Shown one piece after another: positions 791 to 63,100 of a DNA stretch of 64,000 bases. A model generated the notes under the pieces. It did no database searches, had not been told where the DNA came from, and saw only the letters and a program-made list of their open reading frames with translations. Source of the DNA: Deltaproteobacteria bacterium (GTDB lineage Bacteria; Bdellovibrionota; JACOXK01; 2-02-FULL-40-11); assembly GCA_016198185.1 (NCBI GenBank), contig JACQJD010000046.1, forward strand, positions 9,242-73,241, written 5' to 3'. A program made the translations under genes and the position numbers. The stretch's first letter is position 1, and every line of letters begins with the position of its first letter.

Positions 791-837
791 CATCCCATTC
801 ATTTATGAATAACGTTATTAAAGTTTATCCGAAGTTT

Positions 838-900
838 GGCCACTGCCAACATCTCTGTGGCTCGAAAGGCAATGCCGCCGCAGAGATGTTGGCAGTGGCC
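838..900. terminator. Perfect 20-bp-stem hairpin between two convergent genes (REP-like or terminator)
   Basis: ggccactgccaacatctctg ... cagagatgttggcagtggcc lies between the 3' ends of the FNR-like gene and pepP. There is no T-tract, so it may act as a bidirectional or REP-type stabiliser rather than a canonical terminator. Confidence 0.45.
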
Positions 901-968
901 CCACATCGTTCACCTTTCAGAAAACCAAACTATCTGTAGCGAAAATCTTTAGAACCAAGGGAAAGAGA

Positions 969-2378: not shown

Positions 2379-3314
2379 ATGTCATTATCATCTTTCGGCA
2401 TGTTATTTTCTGAAACCTTAAAGAAGACACCACTTCCCCTCATGTATGAAGTCATTCCGGCGAGGCTCGATTGGCCAATGACCAAAGTGATTGCTTCCAT
2501 TCGCCAAACCTTGGACCCTATTTGCGACACAGGGGTCTTGTGTTTAAACATCCCCGAAATTTTAGATAGCCCCATTCCCAAGATGGAACCCAGACTCTAT
2601 GCCAAATTAATTCAAGAACAGAGCCCCATCCCCTTTGAAATGATTGTCAATCGTGTGGTGGTCCACGCACCCCTTTCTGAACAATTAACCTGGCTTTCCG
2701 ACACCCATCGCAACTTTCACATTGACACCTTTATTTTTGTGGGCGGAGCGAGCCAAGATGGACAGTATCCAGGCCCTTCCGTATCTCAATTAATGCAGCA
2801 CGCCCAAAAGTATTCTGTAGGAGGGATTCTCATTCCCCATCGGCTTGAAAAAGATTCTGGCATGGATGAAGCTCACCGCGTCATTCAAAAACAAAAGGCG
2901 GGCATTTCTTTTTTTACGAGCCAGGTACTTTACGACATAGAACCTCTCAAAAAGTTTTTATGGCAATATCATGAATTGCTCTGCCAAGAAAAACTTTCTC
3001 CCCTCCCTTTGTTTTTAAGTTTTTCGCCCATCAGCTCTGAACGCGATATTGCGTTCTATCAAAAACTTCAAGTGCTGATTCCCAAACACGTGCTCCAAAA
3101 CTTACGAAAACACCCCAAAGACATGGCCGCCTATTCTCTAGATGTGGTCGAGGCCCTCTTTGAAGAAATTTTTTCTTTCGTTCAAAAGTTTACACCTCAG
3201 ATGAGGCTGGGCATCAACGTGGAATACATTACGCACCACAACCGCTTACATTCTTACGAGCTCCTTCGGAAATTTTCTAAACGCACCTCGACCCTGGCTC
3301 GAGGGTCAGAATGA
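2379..3314 (+). CDS. Methylenetetrahydrofolate reductase-like (MTHFR family) protein
   Basis: 'FIFVGGASQDG...KQKAGISFFTSQVLYD' matches the MTHFR 'K..AGAdF.iTQ.fFd' region. About 310 aa. Translationally coupled (ATGA overlap) to the next gene. Confidence 0.4.
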   Translation: MSLSSFGMLFSETLKKTPLPLMYEVIPARLDWPMTKVIASIRQTLDPICDTGVLCLNIPEILDSPIPKMEPRLYAKLIQEQSPIPFEMIVNRVVVHAPLSEQLTWLSDTHRNFHIDTFIFVGGASQDGQYPGPSVSQLMQHAQKYSVGGILIPHRLEKDSGMDEAHRVIQKQKAGISFFTSQVLYDIEPLKKFLWQYHELLCQEKLSPLPLFLSFSPISSERDIAFYQKLQVLIPKHVLQNLRKHPKDMAAYSLDVVEALFEEIFSFVQKFTPQMRLGINVEYITHHNRLHSYELLRKFSKRTSTLARGSE

Positions 3315-4864
3315 ATTACGATTATATCATTGTGGGCGCGGGCATGAGCGGACTGACCGTTGGATCTCTGCTCGCCAAAGCTGGCAAACGTGTGTGTATT
3401 TTGGAAGCACATGAATATCCTGGGGGCTGTTGTCATAGTTTTAAAAAGGGGGAATACACGTTTTGCGCCTCCGTTCATTATATTTTTTTTGCAGGCGAAG
3501 GCCAACCCGTTCATAATTTCTTAAAAAAATTAGGCCTTGAAAAAGAAATCACCTTTGAACGATTGGATCCAGAAGGATACGACATTTTTTCTTGCCCTAC
3601 CGAAGGACTGCGTTGCGCTATCCCCAATGGACTTGAAAATTGGAGAGATCGGCTGATTGCAAATTTTCCAGAAGATCAAAAAGCACTTTCTCTTTTTTTT
3701 AAGATTATTTTTAATTTGGTAAAAGATTTTTACCACATGCCTTATGATATTTCCATAATCGGTTTAATGAAACTTGCTTACAAAACGCCGTCCATTTTTA
3801 AATTCCGAAAATGGACACTGCAGGATTTGTTTAATCATTGCGGGCTTTCTCTGCGTGTGCAAGCCGTCTTGGCCACGCAATTAGGTGATGTCGCCGAACC
3901 CCCCAAGCATATTTCCCTCATCATTTATGCCGCTCTCATTTGGAGTTACGGTCGAGGAGCGTATTATCCAACCAAACATTTCCATACCTTTATCGATACC
4001 ATTGCCAATACCATCGAAACCAGCCCCGGTTCCAAAATTCACTATAATACCGAAATTGTAAAAGTAGAACGAGAAGGCCACCAAATCAGCAAAGTAATTT
4101 CCAAATCGGGAGAATGTTTTCAAGCCCCAGTCATTATTTGCAATATGGACCCTCAAAAGTTTGTGAAAATGATGGATCAGAATGATCTTCCAACATCTTT
4201 TTCGAAGCGTGTTGATTATGATTATTCTGTCAGTGCCCTCACACTCTTTTTAGGAGTCCAAGGACTCAATCTCAGAGACTATGGATTTGGCAAAGGCAAC
4301 ATTTGGCATTATCCTCATTTAGATATCAATCGCATTTATGAGGGACAACACGAAAAGCGGAATCTCTCGGATCCTTGGTTTTTCATGTCAACCCCTACGT
4401 TGTATTCACCTGCGTCTGAACCCAGGATCGCACCCCGAGGGGAAGAAATTCTTGAAGTTGTCACCACCTGTCCTTATGAACTTTTCCGTCAGAAACTCAA
4501 TGAAAGTCACCAAGCATACGTTTTATTTAAAAATGAAATTCGGGATCGAATTTTAGATCTCATCGAGGCCCATTATATTCCCAATTTTAAAGAACATGTT
4601 GTTTTAAAAGTGGTTGGCACCCCAACAACCCATGAACGTTATCTCTGGGCGCCGCACGGGAATATTTACGGCTCCGCCCTCACACCGAAAAATGTAGATT
4701 TTTCGCGTCTTAAATTTCGCTCACCGATCAAGAATTTATTTTTCACAGGTGCCACTGTGGAATTTCCAGGCATTGGGGCGACCGTCATGGCCGGGACACG
4801 GCTCTACACCTATCTTACGAATGATGTTGTACATCCAGGGAAAAATTTTAACGATTTGATTTAA
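3311..4864 (+). CDS. FAD-dependent oxidoreductase (phytoene desaturase / CrtI-like amine-oxidase fold)
   Basis: N-terminal 'YDYIIVGAGMSGLTVGSLLAKAGKRVCILEAHEYPGG' Rossmann dinucleotide-binding motif; 517 aa. Confidence 0.6.
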   Translation: MNYDYIIVGAGMSGLTVGSLLAKAGKRVCILEAHEYPGGCCHSFKKGEYTFCASVHYIFFAGEGQPVHNFLKKLGLEKEITFERLDPEGYDIFSCPTEGLRCAIPNGLENWRDRLIANFPEDQKALSLFFKIIFNLVKDFYHMPYDISIIGLMKLAYKTPSIFKFRKWTLQDLFNHCGLSLRVQAVLATQLGDVAEPPKHISLIIYAALIWSYGRGAYYPTKHFHTFIDTIANTIETSPGSKIHYNTEIVKVEREGHQISKVISKSGECFQAPVIICNMDPQKFVKMMDQNDLPTSFSKRVDYDYSVSALTLFLGVQGLNLRDYGFGKGNIWHYPHLDINRIYEGQHEKRNLSDPWFFMSTPTLYSPASEPRIAPRGEEILEVVTTCPYELFRQKLNESHQAYVLFKNEIRDRILDLIEAHYIPNFKEHVVLKVVGTPTTHERYLWAPHGNIYGSALTPKNVDFSRLKFRSPIKNLFFTGATVEFPGIGATVMAGTRLYTYLTNDVVHPGKNFNDLI

Positions 4865-4866
4865 AA

Positions 4867-5165
4867 GGAAAGCCTCTAAATCTGGTTTTATCAGAGGAAA
4901 ATTTATTTACGTAAATCTAATAATTTTACTCCTTGGAGATTGACTGATAAACCACGCGGTCAAATGACCCTGCAAGTCATTTGCCGCTCAGCTCTCGGCC
5001 TCGCTCTTTTTTGTAAAGCCACAAGTGGCTGCGCACTTGTGGCTTTACAAAAAAACCATGCCCGCTCGGCCTGCGAGATGGGTTTATCAGTCAATCTCCA
5101 AGGAGCTACGTCATAGCTTATTTAAATAAATTTCCCTCTGATAAAACCAGATTTAGAGGCTTTCC
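4867..5165. repeat. About 300 bp nested (three-level) palindromic element between convergent genes
   Basis: Outer arms of about 44 bp (4867-4910 versus 5120-5165). Middle arms are a perfect 25 bp (ctccttggagattgactgataaacc / ggtttatcagtcaatctccaaggag). Inner stem is a perfect 18 bp (tttgtaaagccacaagtg ... cacttgtggctttacaaa). Confidence 0.6.
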
Positions 5166-6457
5166 TCACACTTTTTCAAGCACGGCTCGGCCTTGTGAAG
5201 CAGCACATTGGCTGCGTATTGACCCGTTAAAAAACTATCTTCTAGCCCACAGATATTGTGATCCCCAATGACAAAGAGGTTTTCTTGGGGATTCAAACAA
5301 TGCCACGAAGGACCCGATATCGTAATGGCGGATCTCCAATGCACTGCTTTTCGAATTTTAAAATTGCTGTAATATTTTTTGAGAGATTCAAACTGGGGTT
5401 TTAATTCTGTCTCGTACTTCCCGTTTTCTAAAATGGAAGGGTCCGCCGCTGATGTTGATAACGATCCTTTTACATAAACCGTGTCACTTCCATCGCGATT
5501 TTTCCATAGACATAATACGGGCTCATCTCGAGCGGTCATGACAATGCGAGCGTGCTCATAGATGGGCTTGCGTTCTCCTTCAACCGCAAGAACACAAACT
5601 GAACTTTCATGAAAAGGCTCTTCGGAATACACCCCAAAAGGGTTTGTTCGAAGTACCACTTCCTGCATCCTCTGTGGAACAACTCTGGGAATAACACCCG
5701 TCAACAACTTTTCAACGACTTTCACAGGGGTTGCCAAAACCACAGCCTCTGCTTCAAATCTTTCTTTGGGCGTCTGAACATAAAAACAGCCCCCCTCTTG
5801 GCCAATCGTCATTACGCGGTCATACCAGATTTGATTTCCAAATCCTTGACCAAGCTTAGATAGCGTTTCTGTAAAATCAGCTTCATAGGCACAAACCCAG
5901 GTTGGGAATAACGCCGATAAATAAAATAACGTATTCACTTCTTCTACAGTAACAAAAAATGTGGCTCGAAGGATGGGATGGATAAACTTTTCATGCAACT
6001 CACAAAGCCCCTGTTGTGCAACATAGTCTTTGGCCGGAAGCTTCATCCATCTTTGAATTAAAGGATAATCCTGTAAAACATGTTTTTGGCACTCACCCCT
6101 AGCTTGTTTTCTGAATTTTAGAAGTTCACAGCGAAGGCAAGCGACATCCCTTAGAACGTTCATCAACTTCGGAAAATTTTTTAACCCTCCCCTTCGAAAT
6201 AATGAAAATGGGCCGTTTACTGTTTCAAAATAAACATCTCGAATACGAATGGCAAGACCGTCATCACAAAATTTACGCACCTCATGATAATCTTTCGTAA
6301 TGTATTTGGCGCCCCAAGACATCCCAGACTCAGCATAGATTCTTCCGCCCAAGCGCTCTGTAATCATTACAAAAGAGCGACCCGCATCGTAAAGGGTGCG
6401 CGCACAGGCAAGCCCAGCAATACCACCGCCAACAATCACAATGGGTGTTTGCGTCAT
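5153..6457 (-). CDS. FAD-dependent oxidoreductase (amine oxidase / protoporphyrinogen oxidase-like)
   Basis: N-terminal 'IVIVGGGIAGLACARTLYDAGRSFVMITERLGGRI' FAD-binding motif; 434 aa. Confidence 0.55.
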   Translation of the reverse strand: MTQTPIVIVGGGIAGLACARTLYDAGRSFVMITERLGGRIYAESGMSWGAKYITKDYHEVRKFCDDGLAIRIRDVYFETVNGPFSLFRRGGLKNFPKLMNVLRDVACLRCELLKFRKQARGECQKHVLQDYPLIQRWMKLPAKDYVAQQGLCELHEKFIHPILRATFFVTVEEVNTLFYLSALFPTWVCAYEADFTETLSKLGQGFGNQIWYDRVMTIGQEGGCFYVQTPKERFEAEAVVLATPVKVVEKLLTGVIPRVVPQRMQEVVLRTNPFGVYSEEPFHESSVCVLAVEGERKPIYEHARIVMTARDEPVLCLWKNRDGSDTVYVKGSLSTSAADPSILENGKYETELKPQFESLKKYYSNFKIRKAVHWRSAITISGPSWHCLNPQENLFVIGDHNICGLEDSFLTGQYAANVLLHKAEPCLKKCEESL

Positions 6458-8461: not shown

Positions 8462-8497
8462 AAAAAGCCTTCTTGAAAAAGAAGGCTTTTTTATTTC
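8462..8497 (+). terminator. Rho-independent terminator
   Basis: aaaagccttcttg-aaaa-agaaggctttt followed by a T-run, directly downstream of the RRM gene. Confidence 0.6.
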
Positions 8498-9800: not shown

Positions 9801-9825
9801 CTATTTACAAAACGGGAAATAAAAA

Positions 9826-9965
9826 AGAAGCTTTCGATCTTATTCATTCCATTTGGCCAGCCGATGTTTCTGGAAAAAATAATTTTCTGACTGCCTATGA
9901 AGACGCACTAAAACAATCGAATTTTTATCCGGGGTTTGAAAAACAACTTAGGCTGTCACAATAAC
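9826..9965 (+). pseudogene. C-terminal remnant of a paralogue of the 13498..14373 secreted-protein gene
   Basis: Translates to AFDLIHSIWPADVSGKNNFLTAYEDALKQSNFYPGFEKQLRLSQ*, which aligns with the last 45 aa of the 13498..14373 ORF. No upstream coding sequence remains. Confidence 0.5.
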
Positions 9966-10025
9966 ATCATAGGCCTTGGAATGTTGTTCAATACGATCCA
10001 CTTGTTTATCGAAAACCTGACTCCT
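9948..10025 (-). pseudogene. C-terminal remnant of a paralogue of the 34727..35545 gene
   Basis: The minus strand encodes ...IEQHSKAYDVIVTA*, identical to the C-terminus of the 34727..35545 ORF. It overlaps the plus-strand remnant tail-to-tail, as in the intact locus. Confidence 0.5.
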
Positions 10026-11467: not shown

Positions 11468-11629
11468 AATTCCCCCGAGCCCTAAAAGGGCGAGAGGGGC
11501 CCCATGCGTTGGGGAAAGATTTTGAATATTGTCAGGATGGAAGGCAGCCCGTCATGCCGAGCGTTAGCGAGGCATCTCGGTGTTTAAGCCAAGGTAGTAG
11601 CGTCATTCCGAACGAAGTGAGGAATCTCT
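11468..11629 (+). repeat. Array of three CCGAG..CGAGG mini-palindrome variants (plus orientation)
   Basis: aattcccccgagccctaaaagggcgagaggggcccc; cgtcatgccgagcgttagcgaggcatctcgg; cgtcattccgaacgaagtgaggaatctct. Confidence 0.6.
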
Positions 11630-12157: not shown

Positions 12158-12219
12158 CAGCGATTTATAGCAAAGCATATCGATATAGATCAATAATTTT
12201 TGAAGACTTCCAATTCACA

Positions 12220-12401
12220 GAGATTCCTCACTTCGTTCGGAATGACAATATTACTCTGGTATACATCGATGAGACCCCTCACTTGCGTTCGGGGTGACGT
12301 GTCTAAGCTTATCCTGGCTTGCAGCCCAGTCTTTCCCTGGTGCGGGGAGATCCTCTCGGCTCTTCGAGCCTCGGGATGAATTAGCGCACATGCGCTAATT
12401 C
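12220..12401 (-). repeat. Mirror-image array of CCGAG..CGAGG mini-palindrome variants plus a perfect 24-bp palindrome
   Basis: agagattcctcacttcgttcggaatgac (reverse complement of the copy at 11601), gagacccctcacttgcgttcggggtgacg, ggagatcctctcggctcttcgagcctcgggatg, then gaattagcgcacatgcgctaattc. Confidence 0.6.
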
Positions 12402-12530: not shown

Positions 12531-12557
12531 CTGTAGAGGGTATTTCGGCCTTGATAA

Positions 12558-12645
12558 GGTGTTCGCGTAGCGCGCGGTGTGGCGGCCCAGGACGCGTGCT
12601 ACGCGAACACAACCAAGTCCTTAGAAATATTGACTTTTTCTTTTC
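12558..12645 (+). repeat. Hairpin element A (type-1 arm / core / type-1 arm / type-1 tail)
   Basis: ggtgttcgcgtagcgcgc - ggtgtggcggcccaggacgcg - tgctacgcgaacac, then the tail aaccaagtccttagaaatattgactttttcttttc. Confidence 0.7.
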
Positions 12646-13510: not shown

Positions 13511-14373
13511 TAAAAAAATATTTTTTATTCTTTGGTTTTATTTTAAGTATTTTGCTGACCAGCGATACGGCCAATCTATTCAAGGTTGTTTACAAAGGAG
13601 ATCCGTTGTGTCAGGAAAATACAATATTGATAGAACAAAAGCATGACCATGGTTATGACATCACCGTCTCAAGAGCCGAAGACTGGATATGTCAATCCAT
13701 CGATATCAAAAAAAATGGAAAATTACTTTTCCATAATGAAGAAATTGGCGGTTACTATTTCTTAAGTGATAACTTCGAAGAACATGGCAACCCATTCTTT
13801 TTTTTACCCGGTAATATCAATCCCCATTTTGTATTTTCCAAATGGACAGGGGGCGCCCATTGCTGCTATTCCCTTCATATTTTTTCATTGGGTCAAGATT
13901 TTCGAGAAGTAGCCGCAATTGAGGGTGGAAACTCCCAACCCATTCTTAAAGACCTCGATGGAGATCACATTCCAGAAATTGAAGTTTTAGATGATTTTTT
14001 AGCCTACCTTTTTTCAAGTTTTGCCACCTCAGCTTACGGGGCTGTCATACTGAAATATTCTAATGGAAAATATTATGTAGCAGCAGACATTATGAAAAAA
14101 CCGCGACCCCATTCCAATCTCTGGAAATCTAAAATTTATTCTTGGAAAAATGACTTACGTAAAAAAGGTCCAGAATGGCCTCCCCCGTCTCTCATCCAAA
14201 CCATGACAGATTTAATATTTACAGGAAATAAAAAAGTAGCTTTCGATCTTATTCATTCGATTTGGCCACCCGAGGTTTCTGGAAAAAATGACTTTCTATC
14301 TGAGTATGAAAAAGCATTAGCACAGTCCAATTTTTACCCAGAATTTGAAAAGAAACTTAAGCTGTTACAATAA
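13498..14373 (+). CDS. Hypothetical secreted protein ('gene A' family, the intact copy)
   Basis: 291 aa with GTG start and N-terminal hydrophobic signal. The C-terminal 45 aa recur as remnants at 9826 and 34667. Confidence 0.45.
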   Translation: MCKKIKKYFLFFGFILSILLTSDTANLFKVVYKGDPLCQENTILIEQKHDHGYDITVSRAEDWICQSIDIKKNGKLLFHNEEIGGYYFLSDNFEEHGNPFFFLPGNINPHFVFSKWTGGAHCCYSLHIFSLGQDFREVAAIEGGNSQPILKDLDGDHIPEIEVLDDFLAYLFSSFATSAYGAVILKYSNGKYYVAADIMKKPRPHSNLWKSKIYSWKNDLRKKGPEWPPPSLIQTMTDLIFTGNKKVAFDLIHSIWPPEVSGKNDFLSEYEKALAQSNFYPEFEKKLKLLQ

Positions 14374-14826: not shown

Positions 14827-14854
14827 TACAATTTTTCCTTATTGTGAAACCTAG

Positions 14855-14941
14855 CATTTCGACCAGCGCGCGGTGTGGCGGCCCAGGACGCGCGCTACGC
14901 GAACACCACCAGGTCCTTAGAAATATTGACTTTTTCTTATC
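14855..14941 (+). repeat. Hairpin element B (type-2 left arm / core / type-1 right arm)
   Basis: gcatttcgaccagcgcgc - ggtgtggcggcccaggacgcg - cgctacgcgaacacc - accaggtccttagaaatattgactttttcttatc. Confidence 0.7.
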
Positions 14942-16649: not shown

Positions 16650-16790
16650 TAACAGCAGCTTACCTTTATTTGAAAGTTAATAATTGATCGACCTCCATTA
16701 AACTCTCTTTAAGTCTTTTATAAGACGACGCAGAAAAAATAGCATGCCCTATTCTACCTCAATAATCGACAGCCTCAGGAATAGGTTGAT
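16650..16790 (-). pseudogene. 3' fragment of an ATP-grasp paralogue
   Basis: Shares the ...cctattct(a/g)cctc(a/g)ataatcgacagcctcaggaataggtt... segment with the 3' end of the 21174..22403 ATP-grasp gene. Confidence 0.4.
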
Positions 16791-16794
16791 GCGG

Positions 16795-16890
16795 GGCAGA
16801 CAGATCTGCTATGAATTATACCTTCAAGCTACTACAACACGTAAGGGCGGAAAATGGCGCCCTCAAATGATCAAAAGAATACTTGATCGA
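16795..16890 (+). pseudogene. Last about 30 codons of a serine-recombinase-like gene (copy 1 remnant)
   Basis: RQICYELYLQATTTRKGGKWRPQMIKRILDRP*, matching the C-terminus of the 35583..36023 ORF. Confidence 0.4.
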
Positions 16891-16935
16891 CCATGATCGA
16901 TCTGTTGATTTCAGCAAGAAAAACGCGATATTGTT

Positions 16936-17101
16936 TTATTGATGAAAACCAAAGAAGAAAAACGCCCCAAAGATATTGCGTATTTGGATACAAACGTTAT
17001 CAGTTTTTATTTTGACACAAGACCCGCGATTCAATTGATGCGCGATGCCACTCGTCAGTGGTGGGAAGAGAAAAGCAACGCTTATTATTTGTGTACTTCC
17101 T
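16936..17101 (+). pseudogene. PIN-domain gene with internal deletion (copy 1)
   Basis: MKTKEEKRPKDIAYLDTNVISFYFDTRPAIQLMRDATRQWWEEKSNAYY... aligns to the N-terminus of 36046..36576 but stops after about 55 codons. Confidence 0.5.
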
Positions 17102-17119
17102 ATGCTTAGGAGAATGCAC

Positions 17120-17384
17120 GATGAAGACAAAAATAAAACCAAAAAAATTGGTCATGGGAAGACATGAAAATCCAGTTGACTTCTTTAGACGTGTAAGAAT
17201 GGCCATTATGGAAGAGTTTGATAACGATATTTATAAATATGGCGCCTATTTAAGAGAAAGAGAAAAAGAGCACAAAGACCGGTTGGTGGATGTCGAAAAA
17301 CTACGAAAGCTTGGAATTATCTCAACTCAAATTTACACAATATATTTTACACCACCATCTTTTCAGCATACGTTTATTGTTTGA
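17120..17384 (+). CDS. Small conserved partner protein of the PIN module (copy 1)
   Basis: ...PVDFFRRVRMAIMEEFDNDIYKYGAYLREREKEHKDRLVDVEKLRKLGIIS is about 80% identical to 36573..36794. Confidence 0.5.
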
Positions 17385-21044: not shown

Positions 21045-21143
21045 GGCTTTGGTCAGGTGTTCGCGTAGCGCGCGGTGTGGCGGCCCAAGACGCGCGCTGG
21101 TCGAAATCTCTAAGGCCGTGTTAAATCTACGTTTTTTCTTCTC
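21045..21143 (+). repeat. Hairpin element C (type-1 left arm / core variant 'caaga' / type-2 right arm and tail)
   Basis: gctttggtcaggtgttcgcgtagcgcgc - ggtgtggcggcccaagacgcg - cgctggtcgaaatctctaaggccgtgttaaatctacgttttttcttctc. Confidence 0.7.
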
Positions 21144-26730: not shown

Positions 26731-27863
26731 GAAAACCATCGCAATTAGCATTGATACTGCAATTTCTAGATAAACTTCTTTATTTTGCCATTGTTCCCAA
26801 CATTATCCTGCTCGTGCATCGTGCGGAGATGCTCAGCCTTTCAGATTTAGCCTTTTTCTTTGCCATTCATATTATTCCCTTAAGAGGCCTACCTGTCATC
26901 ATTGGATATTATGTAGATCGAGCCCATTTAAAACAGGCACTTTTGGGTGGATTTATATTACAAGCTTTCTTTATAATCTCGCTGTGTTTTGTATCACATC
27001 GTTGGTTATTTTTACTGTGCGGATTGGGCGCAGGGATGGGCGGTGGTATATTAGCGCCTGTTTTTAATAAAATTCTTGCAGATGGGCAACAACACCATGA
27101 AGAAAAACAAAATTTTCTATATCAATTTTTAGGAATTAATATTGCAGCTGCGGTGGCATCGCTTTTAGCATGGCCTTATCTTTCGCTGTATACACTTCTT
27201 TTTTTTATCCCCGCATGTGTCAGCCTGATCTTAATGGTAAAAAACTTAGATCCCATTACAAGAATGGCAGCTGATGAAGTTCATCCAAATTTTTTTAGAT
27301 CTTTAACTCACATTTTAAAACATGCCCCTGCGCTTAAAATATTAATTTTACTCTCATGCGAATGGGCCATGTATACAATGCTCATGAGTGGCATTCCTGC
27401 AATTGCGGTATCCATTAATGAAAAAATCAATGGCAATCTGTGGATAGGACTCAATGCCGTTACATGCATCCTGGGTTATTTTATTTTCATTCAAAAATTA
27501 AAAGACATGTCCAGAGATCACGTACGCTTGCAACAGGGAATGGTTCTATCCTCCATTGGCATGGTAATTATTGCCTGTGCACCTTCTTTGTTTTTTATTT
27601 TTTTGGCAGTGGTTGTATTTAGCTTAGGAGAATTGATTCTTTCCCCGACGGGAGCTCGCTCTTTAGCCAAGCTTGCTCATCCCAGTATGCGAGGTCAATA
27701 TGTCTCTTCGCTGCTGCTTGCGGGAAGTCTTGGAGAAGGTGGCGGTCAACTTTTTTTAAGCCTCTATCCTCACCCTAGAATGGTTTGCTTTATCGTAGGC
27801 ATCGTAAGTTTATTTTTCACCTGGTATTTGATGCACGCTACGCGAACACCACCAAATCCTTAG
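26727..27863 (+). CDS. MFS-type transporter
   Basis: Multiple TM helices; the start ATG overlaps the ATP-grasp stop (ATGA). The C-terminal codons are supplied by the right half of hairpin element F. Confidence 0.6.
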   Translation: MRKPSQLALILQFLDKLLYFAIVPNIILLVHRAEMLSLSDLAFFFAIHIIPLRGLPVIIGYYVDRAHLKQALLGGFILQAFFIISLCFVSHRWLFLLCGLGAGMGGGILAPVFNKILADGQQHHEEKQNFLYQFLGINIAAAVASLLAWPYLSLYTLLFFIPACVSLILMVKNLDPITRMAADEVHPNFFRSLTHILKHAPALKILILLSCEWAMYTMLMSGIPAIAVSINEKINGNLWIGLNAVTCILGYFIFIQKLKDMSRDHVRLQQGMVLSSIGMVIIACAPSLFFIFLAVVVFSLGELILSPTGARSLAKLAHPSMRGQYVSSLLLAGSLGEGGGQLFLSLYPHPRMVCFIVGIVSLFFTWYLMHATRTPPNP

Positions 27864-27912
27864 AAACATTGACTTTTTCTTTTCCACCCCTCTCGATGAT
27901 CTGGCTCTTTTG
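27834..27912 (+). repeat. Hairpin element F (right half only: type-1 arm and tail, fused to the MFS 3' end)
   Basis: cacgctacgcgaacaccaccaaatccttagaaacattgactttttcttttccacccctctcgatgatctggctcttttgg. The tail matches element E. Confidence 0.6.
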
Positions 27913-28024
27913 GACTTTTTCTTATCCTCCACGCGTCATCTTTGCTGAAATCGGGGGTTTATGACATACTAAATCAGTGATCAATGCTTCTATGCGTTTA
28001 TGAACAAAAAAATGAGAGGGTCAT

Positions 28025-33462: not shown

Positions 33463-33473
33463 GTAACCTATTG

Positions 33474-33572
33474 CTTTGGTCAGGTGTTCGCGTAGCGCGC
33501 GGTGTGGCGGCCCAGGACGCGCGCTGGTCGAAATCTCTAAGGCCGCGTTAAATCTACGTTTTTTCTTCTCAA
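33474..33572 (+). repeat. Hairpin element D (type-1 left arm / core / type-2 right arm and tail)
   Basis: Near-identical to element C (...gctttggtcaggtgttcgcgtagcgcgcggtgtggcggcccaggacgcgcgctggtcgaaatctctaaggccgcgttaaatctacg...). Confidence 0.7.
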
Positions 33573-34671: not shown

Positions 34672-34745
34672 GACGCGCTATGAAGTATTAAACAATCGAA
34701 TTTTTATCCAGAGCTTGAAAAACAACTTAGGCTGTCACAATAACA
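34667..34745 (+). pseudogene. Third remnant of the 'gene A' C-terminus
   Basis: ...aaacaatcgaatttttatccagagcttgaaaaacaacttaggctgtcacaataa matches the end of 13498..14373 but is frame-disrupted. Confidence 0.45.
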
Positions 34746-35545
34746 TCGTAGGCTTTGGAATGTTGTTCAATGCGATAGGCTTGTTTACCAAAAAATTCCA
34801 TCAATGTGCATTCGGTATTGTTTTTGAAATATTCGAGATTTTCTGTCTTTAAGACCACTGCCAAAAAAGGAGACTCTTTTTTGTAAGAAACATCTCCCAA
34901 TGTTGCACGCGCTGTATCAGTGATCCAGATTTTACTTTGATCATGAAGCGTTATCTCGCCATGATGATTTTTACGCTCAAGAAGCTCTTCTAAAATAGGA
35001 CCCAATTTTTGTGACCGATCCCATAAAACAATACCTAAAACATGGGTGCACTCATTGTCATGTTTTAAGCTTAAACGACTTTTTCGCTCTCCCAAAACGG
35101 GGTCCGTTTCATACTCTGTAAACCAAATTTCAATCCCAGGATACAAAGGTTTCCTAAAAAAAATAAAATTCCAACCCGGGAGAGATGCCGTCGAATTATT
35201 TTTCCAATCATAGTTTTTATGTACGTATTGAATATCGTATTTCTTAAAAGAGGCTTCTTTTTTAGTGAAGAAATTCTTTAGATTTTTGTTCACTCGAAAA
35301 GACACGCCTGTCGGATATGGCTGTTGGCCAATTTCTTTTTGCGTTTTCAAAAAAACGTCATCATTTTTAATTTCCACAAATTCAAGATATTTCTTATCCC
35401 CGATGGCTAAAAATCGACACAGTTGCCCACCTTCGTGTTCAACGACATGTTCAGACTGAGTAGAAAATCCTAATTTTTTAAAACGCTCATACTGTTCACA
35501 TGATATCCATCGTGAAAATGCATGGTCATATCCAAATTCAAACAT
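34727..35545 (-). CDS. Hypothetical protein ('gene B' family, the intact copy)
   Basis: 272 aa. The C-terminus ...RIEQHSKAYDVIVTA recurs at 9948..10025. Convergent 3' overlap with 'gene A' remnants. Confidence 0.45.
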   Translation of the reverse strand: MFEFGYDHAFSRWISCEQYERFKKLGFSTQSEHVVEHEGGQLCRFLAIGDKKYLEFVEIKNDDVFLKTQKEIGQQPYPTGVSFRVNKNLKNFFTKKEASFKKYDIQYVHKNYDWKNNSTASLPGWNFIFFRKPLYPGIEIWFTEYETDPVLGERKSRLSLKHDNECTHVLGIVLWDRSQKLGPILEELLERKNHHGEITLHDQSKIWITDTARATLGDVSYKKESPFLAVVLKTENLEYFKNNTECTLMEFFGKQAYRIEQHSKAYDVIVTA

Positions 35546-35559
35546 AAAGTCAGTTTCTC

Positions 35560-35676
35560 CAGGTGTTCGCGTAGCGCGCGGTGTGGCGGCCCAGGACGCG
35601 CGCTACGCGAACACCACCAGGTTCTTAGAAACATTGACTTTTTCTTTTCCACCCCTCTCGATGATCCAGCTCTTTT
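35560..35676 (+). repeat. Hairpin element E (type-1 / core / type-1, long tail)
   Basis: aggtgttcgcgtagcgcgc - ggtgtggcggcccaggacgcg - cgctacgcgaacacc - accaggttcttagaaacattgactttttcttttccacccctctcgatgatccagctcttttgg. Confidence 0.7.
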
Positions 35677-35699: not shown

Positions 35700-36023
35700 G
35701 ATTATCTGCATCTCGTCGCCCATAGTTTCAACCATTCAAAATCATTCGTGCTGGGCCTGCTCAAGCAATATAAAATTTCCCTAAGACCAAAACATGATAA
35801 CGTTGGCAAGAACCCCAATCAGCCTTTCGGCTATCAGATTTACCACGGAAAAAGATGCAAAGATAAAAATAAACAAAAAACCATAGATCTAATCCGAAAT
35901 CTTCACACAGCAGGACAATCCTTCAGACAGATCTGCTATGAATTATACCTCCAAGATATTACAAGGCGTAAGGGTGGAAAATGGCACCCTCAAATGATCA
36001 AAAGAATACTTAATCAAGCATGA
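35700..36023 (+). pseudogene. Truncated large-serine-recombinase-like gene (C-terminal 'recombinase' segment only)
   Basis: '...LIRNLHTAGQSFRQICYELYLQDITRRKGGKWHPQMIKRIL' matches the '...G.S.R.IA..LN..GIPTPRGGKW..STV.RIL' segment that follows the catalytic domain of serine recombinases. The catalytic N-terminus is absent, and the ORF N-terminus is made of hairpin-element sequence. Confidence 0.5.
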
Positions 36024-36045
36024 TCGATCTGTTGATTTCGGCAAG

Positions 36046-36576
36046 ATGAATGCGATATTGTTTTATTTGATGAAAGCTAAAGAAGAAAAACGTCCCAAAG
36101 ATATTGCATATTTGGATACCAACGTTATCAGTTTTTATTTTGACACAAGACCTGAAATTCAATGGATGCGTAACGCTACCCGTCAATGGTGGGAAAAAAG
36201 AAAACAGGATTTTTACGTATGCACATCGGAGGCTGTTGTCGGCGAACTGGAAGATGGAGGTTATTTGCATCAGCCAGAAGCCGTTAAGCTCGTAAAATCC
36301 ATTGCAGTTTTGCCAGGAAACGACTCAGTAGACAACATTGCCCAATATTATATTGAGCACTATTTAGCGCCGAAGGAAAATATCCAACGTTTTCGTGGAG
36401 ATGCAATTCATCTGGCAATTTGCGCTTTCTATCATGTCGATTATTTGCTAACATGGAATTTGAAACATTTGGCGAATGTAAATAAATTCAGACAACTTAA
36501 AATTATGAATGCTCGCATGGATTTATCAACGCCAATTATTACAACACCAGCACAACTTTTAGAGGAAACTATATGA
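36046..36576 (+). CDS. PIN-domain (VapC-like) protein
   Basis: 'IAYLDTNVIS', 'CTSEAVVGELE', 'GDAIHLAICAF' and 'LLTWNLKHL' give the conserved acidic quartet layout of PIN nucleases. Confidence 0.6.
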   Translation: MNAILFYLMKAKEEKRPKDIAYLDTNVISFYFDTRPEIQWMRNATRQWWEKRKQDFYVCTSEAVVGELEDGGYLHQPEAVKLVKSIAVLPGNDSVDNIAQYYIEHYLAPKENIQRFRGDAIHLAICAFYHVDYLLTWNLKHLANVNKFRQLKIMNARMDLSTPIITTPAQLLEETI

Positions 36577-36794
36577 AAGCAAAAAAACAAAAATCTCAAC
36601 TAGCAATACGTCAAGGAGAAGACCCCATTGAACATCTGAGACGCGTTAGAGCGGCCATTCTTGAACGATTTGATAATGATGTCTACAAATATGGCGCCTA
36701 TTTAAGAGAGAAAGAAAAAGAACACCAGGATCGGTTGGTGGATGTCGAGAAACTTAGAAAGTTGGGAATTATATCAACCAAGAAAATACCATAA
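36573..36794 (+). CDS. Small conserved partner protein of the PIN module (copy 2)
   Basis: 73 aa; ATGA overlap with the PIN gene; conserved in copy 1. Confidence 0.5.
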   Translation: MKAKKQKSQLAIRQGEDPIEHLRRVRAAILERFDNDVYKYGAYLREKEKEHQDRLVDVEKLRKLGIISTKKIP

Positions 36795-38987: not shown

Positions 38988-39064
38988 TGGCGGGACCGAC
39001 GAGACTCGAACTCGCGACCTCCTGCGTGACAGGCAGGCGTTCTAACCAACTGAACTACGGTCCC
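38988..39064 (-). tRNA. tRNA-Asp (GTC)
   Basis: The reverse complement GGGACCGTAGTTCAGTTGGTTAGAACGCCTGCCTGTCACGCAGGAGGTCGCGAGTTCGAGTCTCGTCGGTCCCGCCA folds as a cloverleaf, with anticodon loop CTGTCAC and an encoded CCA. Confidence 0.9.
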
Positions 39065-39127
39065 ACTTCCATTTAAGGCCCTCGCTCAGTTGGTTAGCAC
39101 TCATTATATCGGGCGCCTTCGCGCCCT

Positions 39128-39150
39128 TTGGCCAACTGAACTACGGTCCC
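39128..39150 (-). other. Partial duplicate of the tRNA-Asp 5' end (acceptor plus D-arm, about 22 nt)
   Basis: ccaactgaactacggtcccac is repeated 64 bp upstream of the intact gene. A GC hairpin (gggcgccttcgcgccc) and a D-arm-like 'gctcagttggttagcac' lie on the opposite strand in between. Confidence 0.5.
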
Positions 39151-39221
39151 ACTTAAATAAAAAATGTTTATAAATCAAACTGGGCAATAAAAACAAGCCT
39201 ATTTGTACCTTCGGAGCTGTT

Positions 39222-50194: not shown

Positions 50195-50282
50195 TTATGG
50201 CTTTAGTAACGCAACAGGAAATTGTAAGCAAGAATATTTTAATTGAAACAAATCTTATCTTTTCATTTTAGAAATCTTTTCC

Positions 50283-50372
50283 CCTTATCCTAAAGATCTT
50301 CTCTCCAGGGAGTTGGAACGAGGAGTCTATATTTCCAACTCCCTGGAGAGAAGATCTTTAGGATAAGGGGAC
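50283..50372. repeat. Perfect 38-bp inverted repeat in a divergent promoter region
   Basis: ccccttatcctaaagatcttctctccagggagttggaa ... ttccaactccctggagagaagatctttaggataagggg, with a 14-nt loop. Confidence 0.6.
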
Positions 50373-59742: not shown

Positions 59743-60017
59743 GGATAATCTTTTTTAGGATCGTTACTCTGTTACGTTCTTTTTTTAGATCCTTATTTCA
59801 TTATAACCGCCGACGGAAAAAGGTCAATTTTTAATTTTAAAAATTCATACTTCTTTGGGCAATACAAACCCAAAATGGCCCCCAGTGACACAAAACGTCA
59901 CTTCTCAAAACGCTGGCGAACGAGCGTTCCCAACCCATTGAAGTAACTCATTTTCTATAGTATACAATTTGGCATTCTTTTTGCTCCTCTTTCTGTAGGG
60001 AGGGTGTCGAATAAGTC

Positions 60018-60083
60018 ATCCCGAGAGCCGAAGGCTCGAGGGATCTCATCGTAGATTCCTCGCACGTTGTGCTCGGAATGACA
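60018..60083. repeat. Pair of oppositely oriented CCGAG..CGAGG mini-palindrome variants upstream of the giant ORF
   Basis: gtcatcccgagagccgaaggctcgagggatc, then gattcctcgcacgttgtgctcggaatgac (reverse complement of the gtcattccgagc...gaggaatc consensus). Confidence 0.55.
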
Positions 60084-60113
60084 GTTTTTCGACAGCCTCT
60101 CTGTAAGGAACAC

Positions 60114-63100
60114 ATGAACGACCGCCTCGCTAAACGTTTGTTTTATTGGGTGCCAAAAATTGTCACTCAGGTTATCGGTTTGAGTCTCCTGCCAATAGCT
60201 CTGGGGCTCGAACTTCAATGCCGCCTCAGAGCTATTGGCAGGGGACTCACGTTGCTTCCCTTTGACCTTGCTACAGTTTGTATCTTAGGGATGACTGCTG
60301 TATCCGCTTTTGCAGAGCCTCTCGTGTGCTCCGTAGAAAATCGCTATTCGCCAATGAGCTTCCAAGAGTTTGTTCTGCAAGGAACGCCTTCATTTCCGCT
60401 CTTTTCCAATCAAGAGCTCAAAGAATATTATTCACCTCAAGAGCTCTCTGACTTTGAAAAGGTCCTTTCAGCCGTTTATCTTTTTCCACAAGATTTAGAT
60501 ATTGATCATCTTTTTTTAGAAAATTTAGCGGTAGAAGATATTTCTTCTTTGGCCCAAGAATTTTTTGACGCGGAAGGTCTTTCTTCAGCGAAAGAATCAA
60601 GTGAATTTAAAGAAGCCCTTTTGGGATGGCAAGCATTTGGCGTTGATCCCATTCTACTCATCAATACCTGGCAGGTTACAAAACTAGAACTCGCAGATGC
60701 TGAATTTATTTCTTGGCTTCATGAAACAGATTCTTTTTCGGATGAAGATTTAAAAGCTTCGCCTTCTACACTTTCCAAAGAACGAAAATATCATTTGATT
60801 AAAGAATATAAAATTGAACCTTTGATTTTAGAAATTCTTACCCAACGAATGATTTTAGCCATGATGGCAGTCTGGCAAGAAGAAGGGAAAGTGGATTTAA
60901 CCGAGTCTAATCTTTTGCATGAAAAATTACTTTCTTATCAAAAAATGCAACCTCCACTGGTTGACTTAGAAGATGTCCAAAAACAAAAAGAAAAGATTTT
61001 AAAGGAAGTAAAAGCCCAAAAGAAAGCGCTTTTAGCTTTCATCCCAAAAATGGAAGAAAATGCTTTGGTAGAATTCTTTAAAAGTTTCCCACGAATGATG
61101 GAACGAGCGCTTAATCTCTCCCTTGCCAATATTGCTTACTGGGATGGAAAGCTCTGGGGAGCGGCTTTTGGCAAGAACTGGGATTGGTCAGATGTAGGCG
61201 CAGATATTATTAATTTTAACAGAGAGATGATGAATAATTATGGAGGTGGTTCTTATTTGGGAAGCGATTTAGAATTTGCAAACGTAGCACGAGAAAAGAA
61301 ATTCTTTGGATTGAATCTAGAAAAAACATTTGGGCAAGAGGTTGAGAAATTCTATGCAGAGCATGTCAATTTGGAACTTGCCGCAGAATCTTTTAATGTT
61401 TTTGAACCTGTCGGAAGAGCTTTGGCCCCCATAGCCCAACCTATCCTCAATTATCTTTATGAAAAGAAAAAAGATTATGACCTTTGGGTCACTGGTTTAA
61501 CAGAAAAACAATATGAACGGGCTCTTCAAGAAGATAGGTACTTGCAACTGGGACAATTGGGATTGGATGCAGCCCTTACTTCGCTTGAGCTACTTGCCTT
61601 TCGAGGAACGAGAATTTCTTCCCAAAGACTGGCCAGACTCTCAAAACTAAAGAGAGCCACCCCTTCTAGAATACGATTTGTAAAAAGACAAAGGACGTGG
61701 AGGGCATTTCAACCGCTCATCGTTGCAGGAGTTTTGGGAGGGGCTTCGTCGCTGGGGGCAGAACTCTATCAAGTCGGAGAAAACAAGAAATCATTTAGTT
61801 TCTTTAGACTGCTGCATCAAACAAATCTTTCAACAGAAGGCAGTCTTATATTTATGAAGATGACCCAAGCCCTCAGTAATCTTGTAGCAAGACAAGGGGG
61901 ATTTACACCGAAAGCTGTAGAACACGCCAAAGTACTTTCAAAGAGTCTCGATTTCACAGAAGGTTCACTCGATATTCCAGGAACGATTGCGATGATAAAG
62001 AAAGCCCGAAGTAATCTGGGACTGCTTGGAAGCTCACTTATTTTGGGAGCCAATATTTTTGATACGACAGATGTTTCGGTGTCTGGGGTGCTTCATTCTT
62101 TGAAAGCCCTGATACCAGGCAAATCAAAAGCTATTCCGAGTGAACACGTCATTCCGAATGAACTTGTCATTCCGAGCGAACACGTCATTCCGAATGAACA
62201 CGTCATTCCGAGCGAAGCGAGGAATCCCATCGATTCAGCTGATTACAACGCCACCCTTGCAAAAGCCCGTCTTGTCTTGGGACAAGACATCCCAGATCGG
62301 CTTGCAGAGCTCATTTACGCCTCCCACCGCGTTGGGTACGCAGAACCAGGAAAAGATGGATCTCCTGCGTGCATCGGAAATTACACCGATCTTCAACTCA
62401 TTGAAAAAACAAAAATCCTCACCCTCGCCGTGGAAGAAGGCTGGATCACCTACCCACAACTTAAAAAACTCATCCAAGAAGGAGTGGTGGGATCTCAAAT
62501 TGCTCCCATCATCCGACCTGGCGAAATGCGAATTCCACCCGAAATCAAAAAGGCTATTGAAGAAGGAGAAGGCAAGCGCGATTTCATAGCCTACGTGACC
62601 CAAATCTGGGGAAAAAAGTTTAAAGCGGCTGTCACCGCCAAAGCACTTTCTGATGCGCATCAAATTCTAAACACCTACGAAACCATGGTAAAAGAGCCTG
62701 CGATCCTCAAAGACAAAAAAGCAGAAGCTGCGCTCATTGAAAAAGTTGTAGCCTTGGGAAAACGACGAGCACCTATTTTAGATCAGACCTTCGTTCCTCA
62801 AATCGAAAGATTATATCGAGAATCTTCTATCGACGACCGATTCCAACCCCACCATCAATGGCGAATGATTGACCTCTTACGACAAATGGACACTGCCGAA
62901 GCCGCGACATCACTCGTCACCCTGCTTTCAGAAGAAAGAGATGACGACATGGTCCAACCTTTCAAACGTGGCCTGCTTCGAATGAAATCCGCCAAAGCTG
63001 TGATTCAAACCAAAGCTGTAACATCTTCGGCGTCACAACCTGTCAAAGACTTAGCGGAATTGTACCGAAAGGCCGAAGAAAGTCCGTCTGGTCTCCTCAC

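Follow-up and report, generated by a model that had tools for sequence, protein, structure and literature searches.

A 301-bp foldback palindrome, possibly a MITE- or REPIN-like insertion, at the junction of two convergent oxidoreductase genes in a Bdellovibrionota bacterium

How did a long hairpin-forming palindrome come to occupy the gap between two convergent oxidoreductase genes, and what might it do there? The locus lies in a 64 000-nucleotide stretch of contig JACQJD010000046.1, from a Deltaproteobacteria bacterium placed by GTDB in the Bdellovibrionota; this whole stretch is referred to here as the window. An earlier note, made from the sequence alone, described a nested palindrome at this place and suggested that it was either a MITE-like foldback insertion or a bidirectional terminator/attenuator. 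The palindrome is indeed present, spanning 301 bp (4866-5166) by inspection of the sequence and by repeat finder. Its neighbours are an MTHFR-like gene, the two oxidoreductases (hereafter AO on the left and DAO on the right) and truA; AO overlaps the upstream MTHFR-like gene by 4 nt. The features of the locus are as follows.

3311-4864, + strand: AO, 517 aa, FAD-dependent amine-oxidase/phytoene-desaturase-like oxidoreductase (Pfam Amino_oxidase and NAD_binding_8)
4866-4914: left outer arm, GC 0.31, perfect over 4866-4897 with 3 mismatches at the inner end; carries GGTTTTATCAG
4915-4928: left unmatched patch, 14 nt, ATCTAATAATTTTA, an internal loop within the long stem
4929-4953: left middle arm, 25 nt, perfect; carries CTGATAAACC, the inverted form of the outer-arm motif GGTTTTATCAG
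4954-5006: left core spacer, 53 nt, GC 0.60, with its own small hairpin (4956-4987) and the first CTCGGCCT (4994-5001)
5007-5054: inner hairpin, perfect 21-bp stem (5007-5027/5034-5054) and 6-nt loop GCTGCG, arranged T6-stem-loop-stem-A6(7)
5055-5080: right core spacer, 26 nt, GC 0.69, with the second CTCGGCCT (5065-5072) and a weak 5-bp hairpin on the - strand
5081-5105: right middle arm, 25 nt, perfect; also in the independent contig L003
5106-5117: right unmatched patch, 12 nt, CTACGTCATAGC; also present in contig L003
5118-5166: right outer arm, holding the final four codons and stop codon (5153-5155) of DAO; seen in L002 and L003
5153-6457, - strand: DAO, 434 aa, FAD-dependent oxidoreductase of the DAO/amine-oxidase type (from the open reading frame, Pfam and homologues)
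5167-5206, - strand: lineage-specific DNA of the DAO tail outside the palindrome, 40 nt, VLLHKAEPCLKKC, with the third CTCGGCCT (5186-5193)

The outer arms are 49 nt long and 94% complementary by repeat finder, with the terminal 32 nt perfect. The earlier note had put them at 44 bp, abutting both stop codons; the length needs correcting, and on the left the arm begins 2 nt past the AO stop codon (TAA, 4862-4864). On the right, the arm does not merely abut the DAO stop codon but contains it, together with the final four codons (EESL*). The middle arms (4929-4953/5081-5105) are a perfect 25 bp, as had been described, and the inner stem is perfect too, though over 21 bp rather than the 18 bp given for it; the T6/A6 tract contributes 6 of these 21 pairs. 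Symmetry is centred at 5016 and 5017 for the outer and middle arms and at 5030.5 for the inner hairpin, 13.5 nt off. Because the outer and middle arms have a common centre, the palindrome is better described as one interrupted inverted repeat with arms of ~87 nt than as three nested palindromes. Each of these arms consists of 32 perfect nt, a diverged stretch with the 12-14-nt unmatched patch, and 25 perfect nt; the core between them is 127 nt long, GC-richer, and holds the off-centre 21-bp hairpin. GC content in the arms ranges from 0.30 to 0.44, the AT-rich outer arms lying at ~0.30.

The spacers are asymmetric (14 versus 12 nt and 53 versus 26 nt) and have no mutual similarity in inverted orientation, while the unmatched patches at 4915-4928 and 5106-5117 are related in neither orientation. 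The perfect arm blocks contain no G-U pairs, every pair being Watson-Crick, which points more to copying at the DNA level than to selection on RNA pairing. The palindrome holds four copies of the motif GGTTT(T)ATCAG, which between them take both orientations, and none lies outside it. The longest open reading frame within it, at 58 aa, has no relative among 5.8 billion proteins.

The history of the junction was approached through relatives in which AO and DAO homologues are adjacent. There are six of these, five with the genes convergent and one (L006) in tandem. All are distant rather than strains of the same organism; in the nearest, L011, the left gene is 74% and the right gene ~40% identical. 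The closest homologue of DAO is 36% identical to it, and that of AO 74%, with the next at 56% or below. The arrangement and the distance from stop codon to stop codon are given below, with the identity of each AO to that of the window.

Window: AO and DAO convergent, +288 nt
L011: AO 74% identical, convergent, -50 nt
L009: AO 52% identical, convergent, -18 nt
L014: AO 54% identical, convergent, +7 nt
L012: AO 54% identical, convergent, +11 nt
L013: AO 56% identical, convergent, +41 nt
L006 (6001-8703): AO 35% identical, tandem, stop and start codons of the genes 3 nt apart

The palindrome is absent from the AO-DAO junction of all five convergent relatives. A region of similar length without symmetry in relatives, which the earlier note had named as the observation that would argue against a mobile element, does not occur among them: their junctions run from -50 to +41 nt. 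Three further candidates for this comparison (L004, L005 and L008) were dropped, as their left-gene family does not lie beside the right-gene homologue. The persistence of AO and DAO as neighbours across distant lineages suggests that the two may take part in a shared, uncharacterised pathway.

L011 allows the limits of the new DNA to be placed. The alignment, for which a near-zero gap extension was used to accommodate a large gap, runs ungapped at 74-77% nucleotide identity through the final codons and stop of AO (...GATTTGATTTAA), and the AO C-terminus (...NDLI*) is kept to the final residue. Homology restarts at window position 5207 (69% nucleotide identity), where DAO encodes its conserved AAN motif. 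Window 4863-5206, about 344 nt, has no counterpart in L011. Because these 344 nt between aligned flanks are unmatched, the lineage-specific DNA is, by this alignment, the 301-bp palindrome plus 40 nt predicted to encode a new DAO tail. The L011 homologue of DAO has an apparent frameshift at an A-run (~1728-1745), which means either that the gene is a pseudogene or that a homopolymer was misread in this low-coverage metagenome contig; given this frameshift, its C-terminal frame was assigned via the strongly conserved IGDHNICGLEDS motif.

The DAO tail extends beyond the conserved core of the family, and on the predicted reading frame DAO now ends at a stop codon supplied by the arm. When exactly 4866-5166 is removed in silico, AO remains intact and DAO ends ...KKCV*, with the two stop codons overlapping in TTTAAA; an overlap of this kind is within the range seen in the relatives. 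The comparison strongly supports a lineage-specific insertion at a convergent junction that was ancestrally free of any gap. Since even the nearest relative is distant, several events could separate the two states, and the databases searched held no relative closer than L011 that might show intermediates.

Folding of the RNA in both directions, as the earlier note had proposed, gave energies of -170 kcal/mol for the + strand and -182 kcal/mol for the - strand, and -109 kcal/mol when the sequence was folded as DNA. Against dinucleotide shuffles, these correspond to z-scores of -20.8 and -19.6 (RNA, + and - strands) and -20.6 (DNA). At -0.50 kcal/mol per nt, the gap is the most structured intergenic region of the window, the runner-up reaching -0.38, and a transcript would offer perfect duplexes of 32, 25 and 21 bp. 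At the gathering threshold, Rfam recognized only two tRNAs in the window, both outside the palindrome. A search of Rfam 15 at a permissive E-value yielded only sub-threshold matches of the inner hairpin to plant-miRNA hairpins (24-26 bits against cut-offs of 80-111).

The reading that we favour, at roughly even confidence, is that the palindrome is a MITE- or REPIN-like insertion, a small palindromic repeat element. This lineage would have gained foldback DNA where the conserved convergent pair meet 3' to 3', and it would have arrived as mobile or repeat-type DNA: either a non-autonomous element of the MITE kind or, as in REPINs, an inverted doublet of a unit of ~87 nt. The other interspersed hairpin repeats carried by this genome also favour such an origin. 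We infer the mobile origin of the DNA from several features. That there was an insertion, one half of what the earlier note had proposed, is strongly supported by the empty sites of the five convergent relatives (-50 to +41 nt versus +288 nt here). The other half, the likeness to a MITE, is one of resemblance: this is a non-coding palindrome of 301 bp that folds very stably, with AT-rich arms and long terminal inverted repeats but no target-site duplication.

The general features of prokaryotic MITEs (PMC10969869) provide a point of comparison. QMITE2 of Coxiella, Correia elements of Neisseria and ERIC of enterobacteria measure, like the palindrome, a few hundred bp, end in inverted repeats and encode no transposase. 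The likeness extends to AT-rich arms, an intergenic place, a stable stem-loop in the transcript and an altered end of a neighbouring open reading frame. Of the features expected of a MITE, the palindrome thus has the terminal inverted repeats, the small size without a transposase gene and a site that is empty in relatives, while the flanking direct repeats are lacking. It differs further in having unusually long arms (49 nt, or ~87 nt if the interrupted part is included), in showing no sequence similarity to elements in Rfam, plasmids or phages, and in that no second copy was found in the window or in collections that do not contain the source genome.

The architecture can equally be compared with REPIN-like inverted doublets (PMC3116915). 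The palindrome consists of inverted units at 4866-4953 and 5081-5166 with 127 nt between them; it resembles REPINs and BIMEs in this, in the lack of a target-site duplication and in lying in a window that holds REP-like hairpin families. REP-type elements favour gaps between convergent genes (PMC3116915, PMC3337134, PMC3184786). In contrast to REP units, which are 20-40 nt long, GC-rich and of high copy number, the unit here is ~87 nt and AT-rich, with no further copies in the window and stems that lack a GTAG or CGTC tag at their foot. Precedent for nested repeat structures comes from the pneumococcal SPRITE, BOX and RUP repeats (PMC3049150, PMC10969869, PMC3184786). These are multi-copy Firmicutes families with a defined consensus, to which the palindrome has no sequence relationship, and in place of their nesting it is better read as an interrupted inverted repeat with a core hairpin.

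Searches for further copies and for marks of transposition bear against a mobile origin within their scope. Within the 64-kb window, the only match to each arm sequence is its partner, where chance would predict 0, and blastn-short of the palindrome and of its separate parts returned nothing from the remainder of the window beyond chance-level matches of 11-16 nt. In exact scans, an outer-arm 23-mer was absent from species-representative genomes, JGI metagenomes and viral contigs, and a middle-arm 22-mer from viral, genome and metagenome contigs. The source genome is outside these collections, as is evident from the absence there of a 23-mer of the window's own. A 24-mer of the inner hairpin was absent from viral contigs, and a distant blastn of the palindrome against plasmids and phages found no match. 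Since the genome is rich in interspersed hairpin repeat families, a singleton in 64 kb is unremarkable. No target-site duplication of 2-10 nt was found at the outer, middle or inner boundaries or at shifted boundaries, and the sequences flanking the palindrome (...GATTTGATTTAAA and CACACTTTTTC...) have 0 bases in common. None of the 14 window proteins scanned is a transposase. Two observations stand against a single clean insertion of 301 bp: the lineage-specific DNA runs 40 nt past the right arm, and one of the three CTCGGCCT copies lies outside the palindrome.

These observations lead to the alternative that survives best, although we consider it rather unlikely: that duplication of the DAO 3' end, with serial template switching or inverted duplication, enlarged the spacer locally and first made, then perfected, the arms, all as single-copy DNA that was never mobile. 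Template switching creates, homogenizes and expands inverted repeats (PMC8794818, PMC8604942, PMC13100816). The core (4954-5080) resembles the DAO 3' end (5176-5221) in direct orientation, and all three occurrences of CTCGGCCT in the 64 kb (4994, 5065 and 5186) are on the + strand and within 200 nt of one another. When all chunks of the window are ordered by similarity to the core, the right flank falls within the best 0.1-1.3%; the converse comparison places the core 3rd to 5th among 1,960 chunks. Growth in place would also be in keeping with the lack of a target-site duplication and of any other copy in the window and in collections without the source genome, and perfect arm blocks beside unrelated spacers are the expected residue of separate template switches. 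Hairpins made by template switching are similar in having perfect reverse-complement blocks of 20-50 nt, close together, with unrelated sequence between them (PMC8794818, PMC10710096, PMC8604942).

The difficulty is one of raw material. Template switching needs existing DNA, and the documented cases copy local DNA, whereas here the ancestral site had almost none: relatives have only -50 to +41 nt at the junction and neither arm. The arms show no similarity to either flanking gene, and ~200 nt of template and spacer would be without a source. An ancestral state with the template arm but without the copied arm was not seen among the relatives, which lack both arms and nearly all of the intergenic DNA. 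The similarity to the DAO tail is itself marginal; derivation of the core from the DAO 3' end has p ~0.002-0.01 against a real-sequence background in which unrelated chunks reach equal scores, and the initial choice of region had been made by eye. A fuller version, in which a single-copy element was born in place, DAO 3'-end duplications pushing apart the originally overlapping pair and template switches then building a 300-nt nested hairpin that now gives both mRNAs a shared 3' structure, strikes us as unlikely. On this version the locus would show a large structured 3'-end element arising de novo in a bacterium, and the three CTCGGCCT repeats would be surviving traces of the DNA from which it was built. 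As single-copy and locally generated DNA, it would record a large bidirectional RNA structure arising from nothing between genes.

A selected bidirectional terminator/attenuator acting on both convergent genes, the other suggestion of the earlier note, we regard as improbable. The placement exactly between convergent genes and the equal folding of both strands would suit it, as would the presence of a long hairpin in another convergent gap of the window (791-968); SPRITE and REP families also combine a terminator-like shape with a bias to convergent gene ends (PMC3184786). As in bidirectional intrinsic terminators, the outermost stem (AGGAAAGCC...GGCTTTCCT) is A-rich on its 5' side and T-rich on its 3' side; the weak U-rich stretches that come after it are CACACUUUUU (+ strand) and UUUAAAU (- strand). 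A terminator scan of the gap found no canonical terminator on the + strand and, on the - strand, a weak 5-bp hairpin followed by a U-run (5077-5061). Against this, the canonical features are missing. On either strand the inner hairpin runs U6-stem-loop-stem-A7; the U-run precedes the stem and the A-run comes after it, opposite to the order in a terminator, and neither direction has a U-tract behind the hairpin. The five convergent relatives do without a hairpin and with a minimal spacer or none, and there is no match in Rfam. The symmetry does exceed what a terminator needs, as had been claimed: the bidirectional terminator at 8462-8491 in the same window has a 13-bp stem, whereas the palindrome has 95 paired positions and is about ten times the normal size. 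Judged on its sequence, the palindrome does not look like a canonical intrinsic terminator, and would at best provide weak terminators on the outermost stem and at 5077-5061.

Less probable still is a DNA-level site for binding or recombination, serving a site-specific recombinase or a dimeric regulator, with GGTTT(T)ATCAG and CTCGGCCT as putative sites. The four occurrences of the former, in both orientations and confined to the palindrome, the three direct copies of the latter and the resemblance of the window's R2 repeats to mosaic recombination sites speak for such a role, but the locus has no adjacent recombinase or regulator gene, no similar site elsewhere in the window and no switch in GC skew of the kind that marks a replication origin or terminus.

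Independent assemblies from three sequencing runs reproduce both gene-to-arm junctions. Contig L003 is identical to the source contig over 5060-5166, a stretch that takes in both of the asymmetric spacers on the right; for 4883-5059 the source contig is the sole support. Contigs built at k=31 from three separate runs end inside the palindrome, because a 32-nt perfect inverted repeat disrupts such a graph. The junction is not chimeric, because the AO and DAO families adjoin in six distant relatives too. A mis-join by the assembler at inverted repeats, creating the palindrome or its centre, is hardly credible: the k=31 breaks and the single support for the centre would fit it, but such breaks are the expected behaviour of this repeat, the perfect arms (32 nt at most) are far below read length and are resolved by assemblers using larger k, L003 independently gives 5060-5166 exactly, the two halves bear different unique spacers and so form no simple fold-back chimera, and the flanking genes are conserved neighbours.

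Several other identities were tried for the palindrome. A retron, an integron attC site, a ribozyme and a telomere-resolution site were rejected, the required neighbour genes or Rfam matches being missing; an IHF-like consensus beside the palindrome and a promoter-like site at 4950-4923 were set aside because neither rises above chance.

The window contains a variety of other repeats. A modular hairpin repeat family has at least five copies between 12 and 36 kb: interspersed mosaic repeats of ~100 nt, which occur at 12548-12645, 14844-14941, 21046-21143, 33473-33570 and 35552-35649, with a partial copy at 27830-27920. They have a common GC-rich core (GCGCGCGGTGTGGCGGCCCAGGACGCGCGC), preceded by a left half-site of type A (GGTGTTCGCGTAGC) or B (ATTTCGACCAGC) and followed either by A' (GCTACGCGAACACC) and a tail containing TTGACT or by B' (GCTGGTCGAAAT) and a different tail; the combinations A..A', A..B' and B..A' are all found. 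By its composition, this family looks like hybrid recombination sites or BIME-like mosaics. A two-copy hairpin family (830-908 and 60181-60249) has a conserved loop, CTCGAA...CAATGCCGCC, and stems that differ by compensatory changes (CAACATCTCTGTGGC versus CAATAGCTCTGGGGC, the opposite side of each stem being altered to match). The family, REP-like or a structured RNA, has no match in Rfam, and one of its copies lies in another convergent gap. At 50280-50371, a hairpin with 39-nt perfect arms and a 14-nt loop, single in the window, occupies a gap between divergent genes.

The region from 9800 to 36800 has a lower GC content (0.36-0.39 versus ~0.42 elsewhere) and dispersed direct repeats of 100-170 nt with 78-91% identity, among them 16665-17326 versus 35924-36778, and 9812-10015 versus 14221-14373 and 34690-34794. 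It holds two paralogous ATP-grasp/L-amino-acid-ligase genes, and none of the ten proteins scanned in it is a transposase or integrase. About five tandem copies of the 18-nt repeat ATTCCGAGTGAACACGTC occupy 62133-62222, and a related sequence, GTCATTCCGAACGAAGTGAGGAATCTCT, forms an inverted pair at 11589-11629 and 12219-12259, with the arms 589 nt apart. A stretch of 2.4 kb (59743-62139) is without an open reading frame of at least 100 aa or a match in Rfam, and includes one of the conserved-loop hairpins. Finally, an exact 23-nt direct repeat (39046-39068 and 39132-39154) has one copy within tRNA-Asp (38988-39064) and may be the attachment-site duplication of an integrated element.

On the favoured reading of the palindrome as a MITE- or REPIN-like insertion, its role today would be passive. 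It would have pushed apart two genes that once overlapped, and both mRNAs would terminate in, or continue through, a highly stable hairpin. Such a hairpin could block 3' exonucleases, offer RNase III perfect duplexes of 21-32 bp and hinder read-through into the opposite gene, and ribosomes completing DAO would have to unwind the outer stem over its first 14 bp. Roles of this kind have been reported for repeats of the REP, ERIC, Correia and SPRITE types (PMC3184786, PMC10969869). If this reading is true, the palindrome would account for the assembly breaks at short k at this locus, and it would carry a warning for annotation, the C-terminus of DAO being derived from the element. It would be a further small palindromic repeat element, from a lineage that is poorly sampled, and a clean example of an insertion that has separated overlapping convergent genes and re-terminated one of them.
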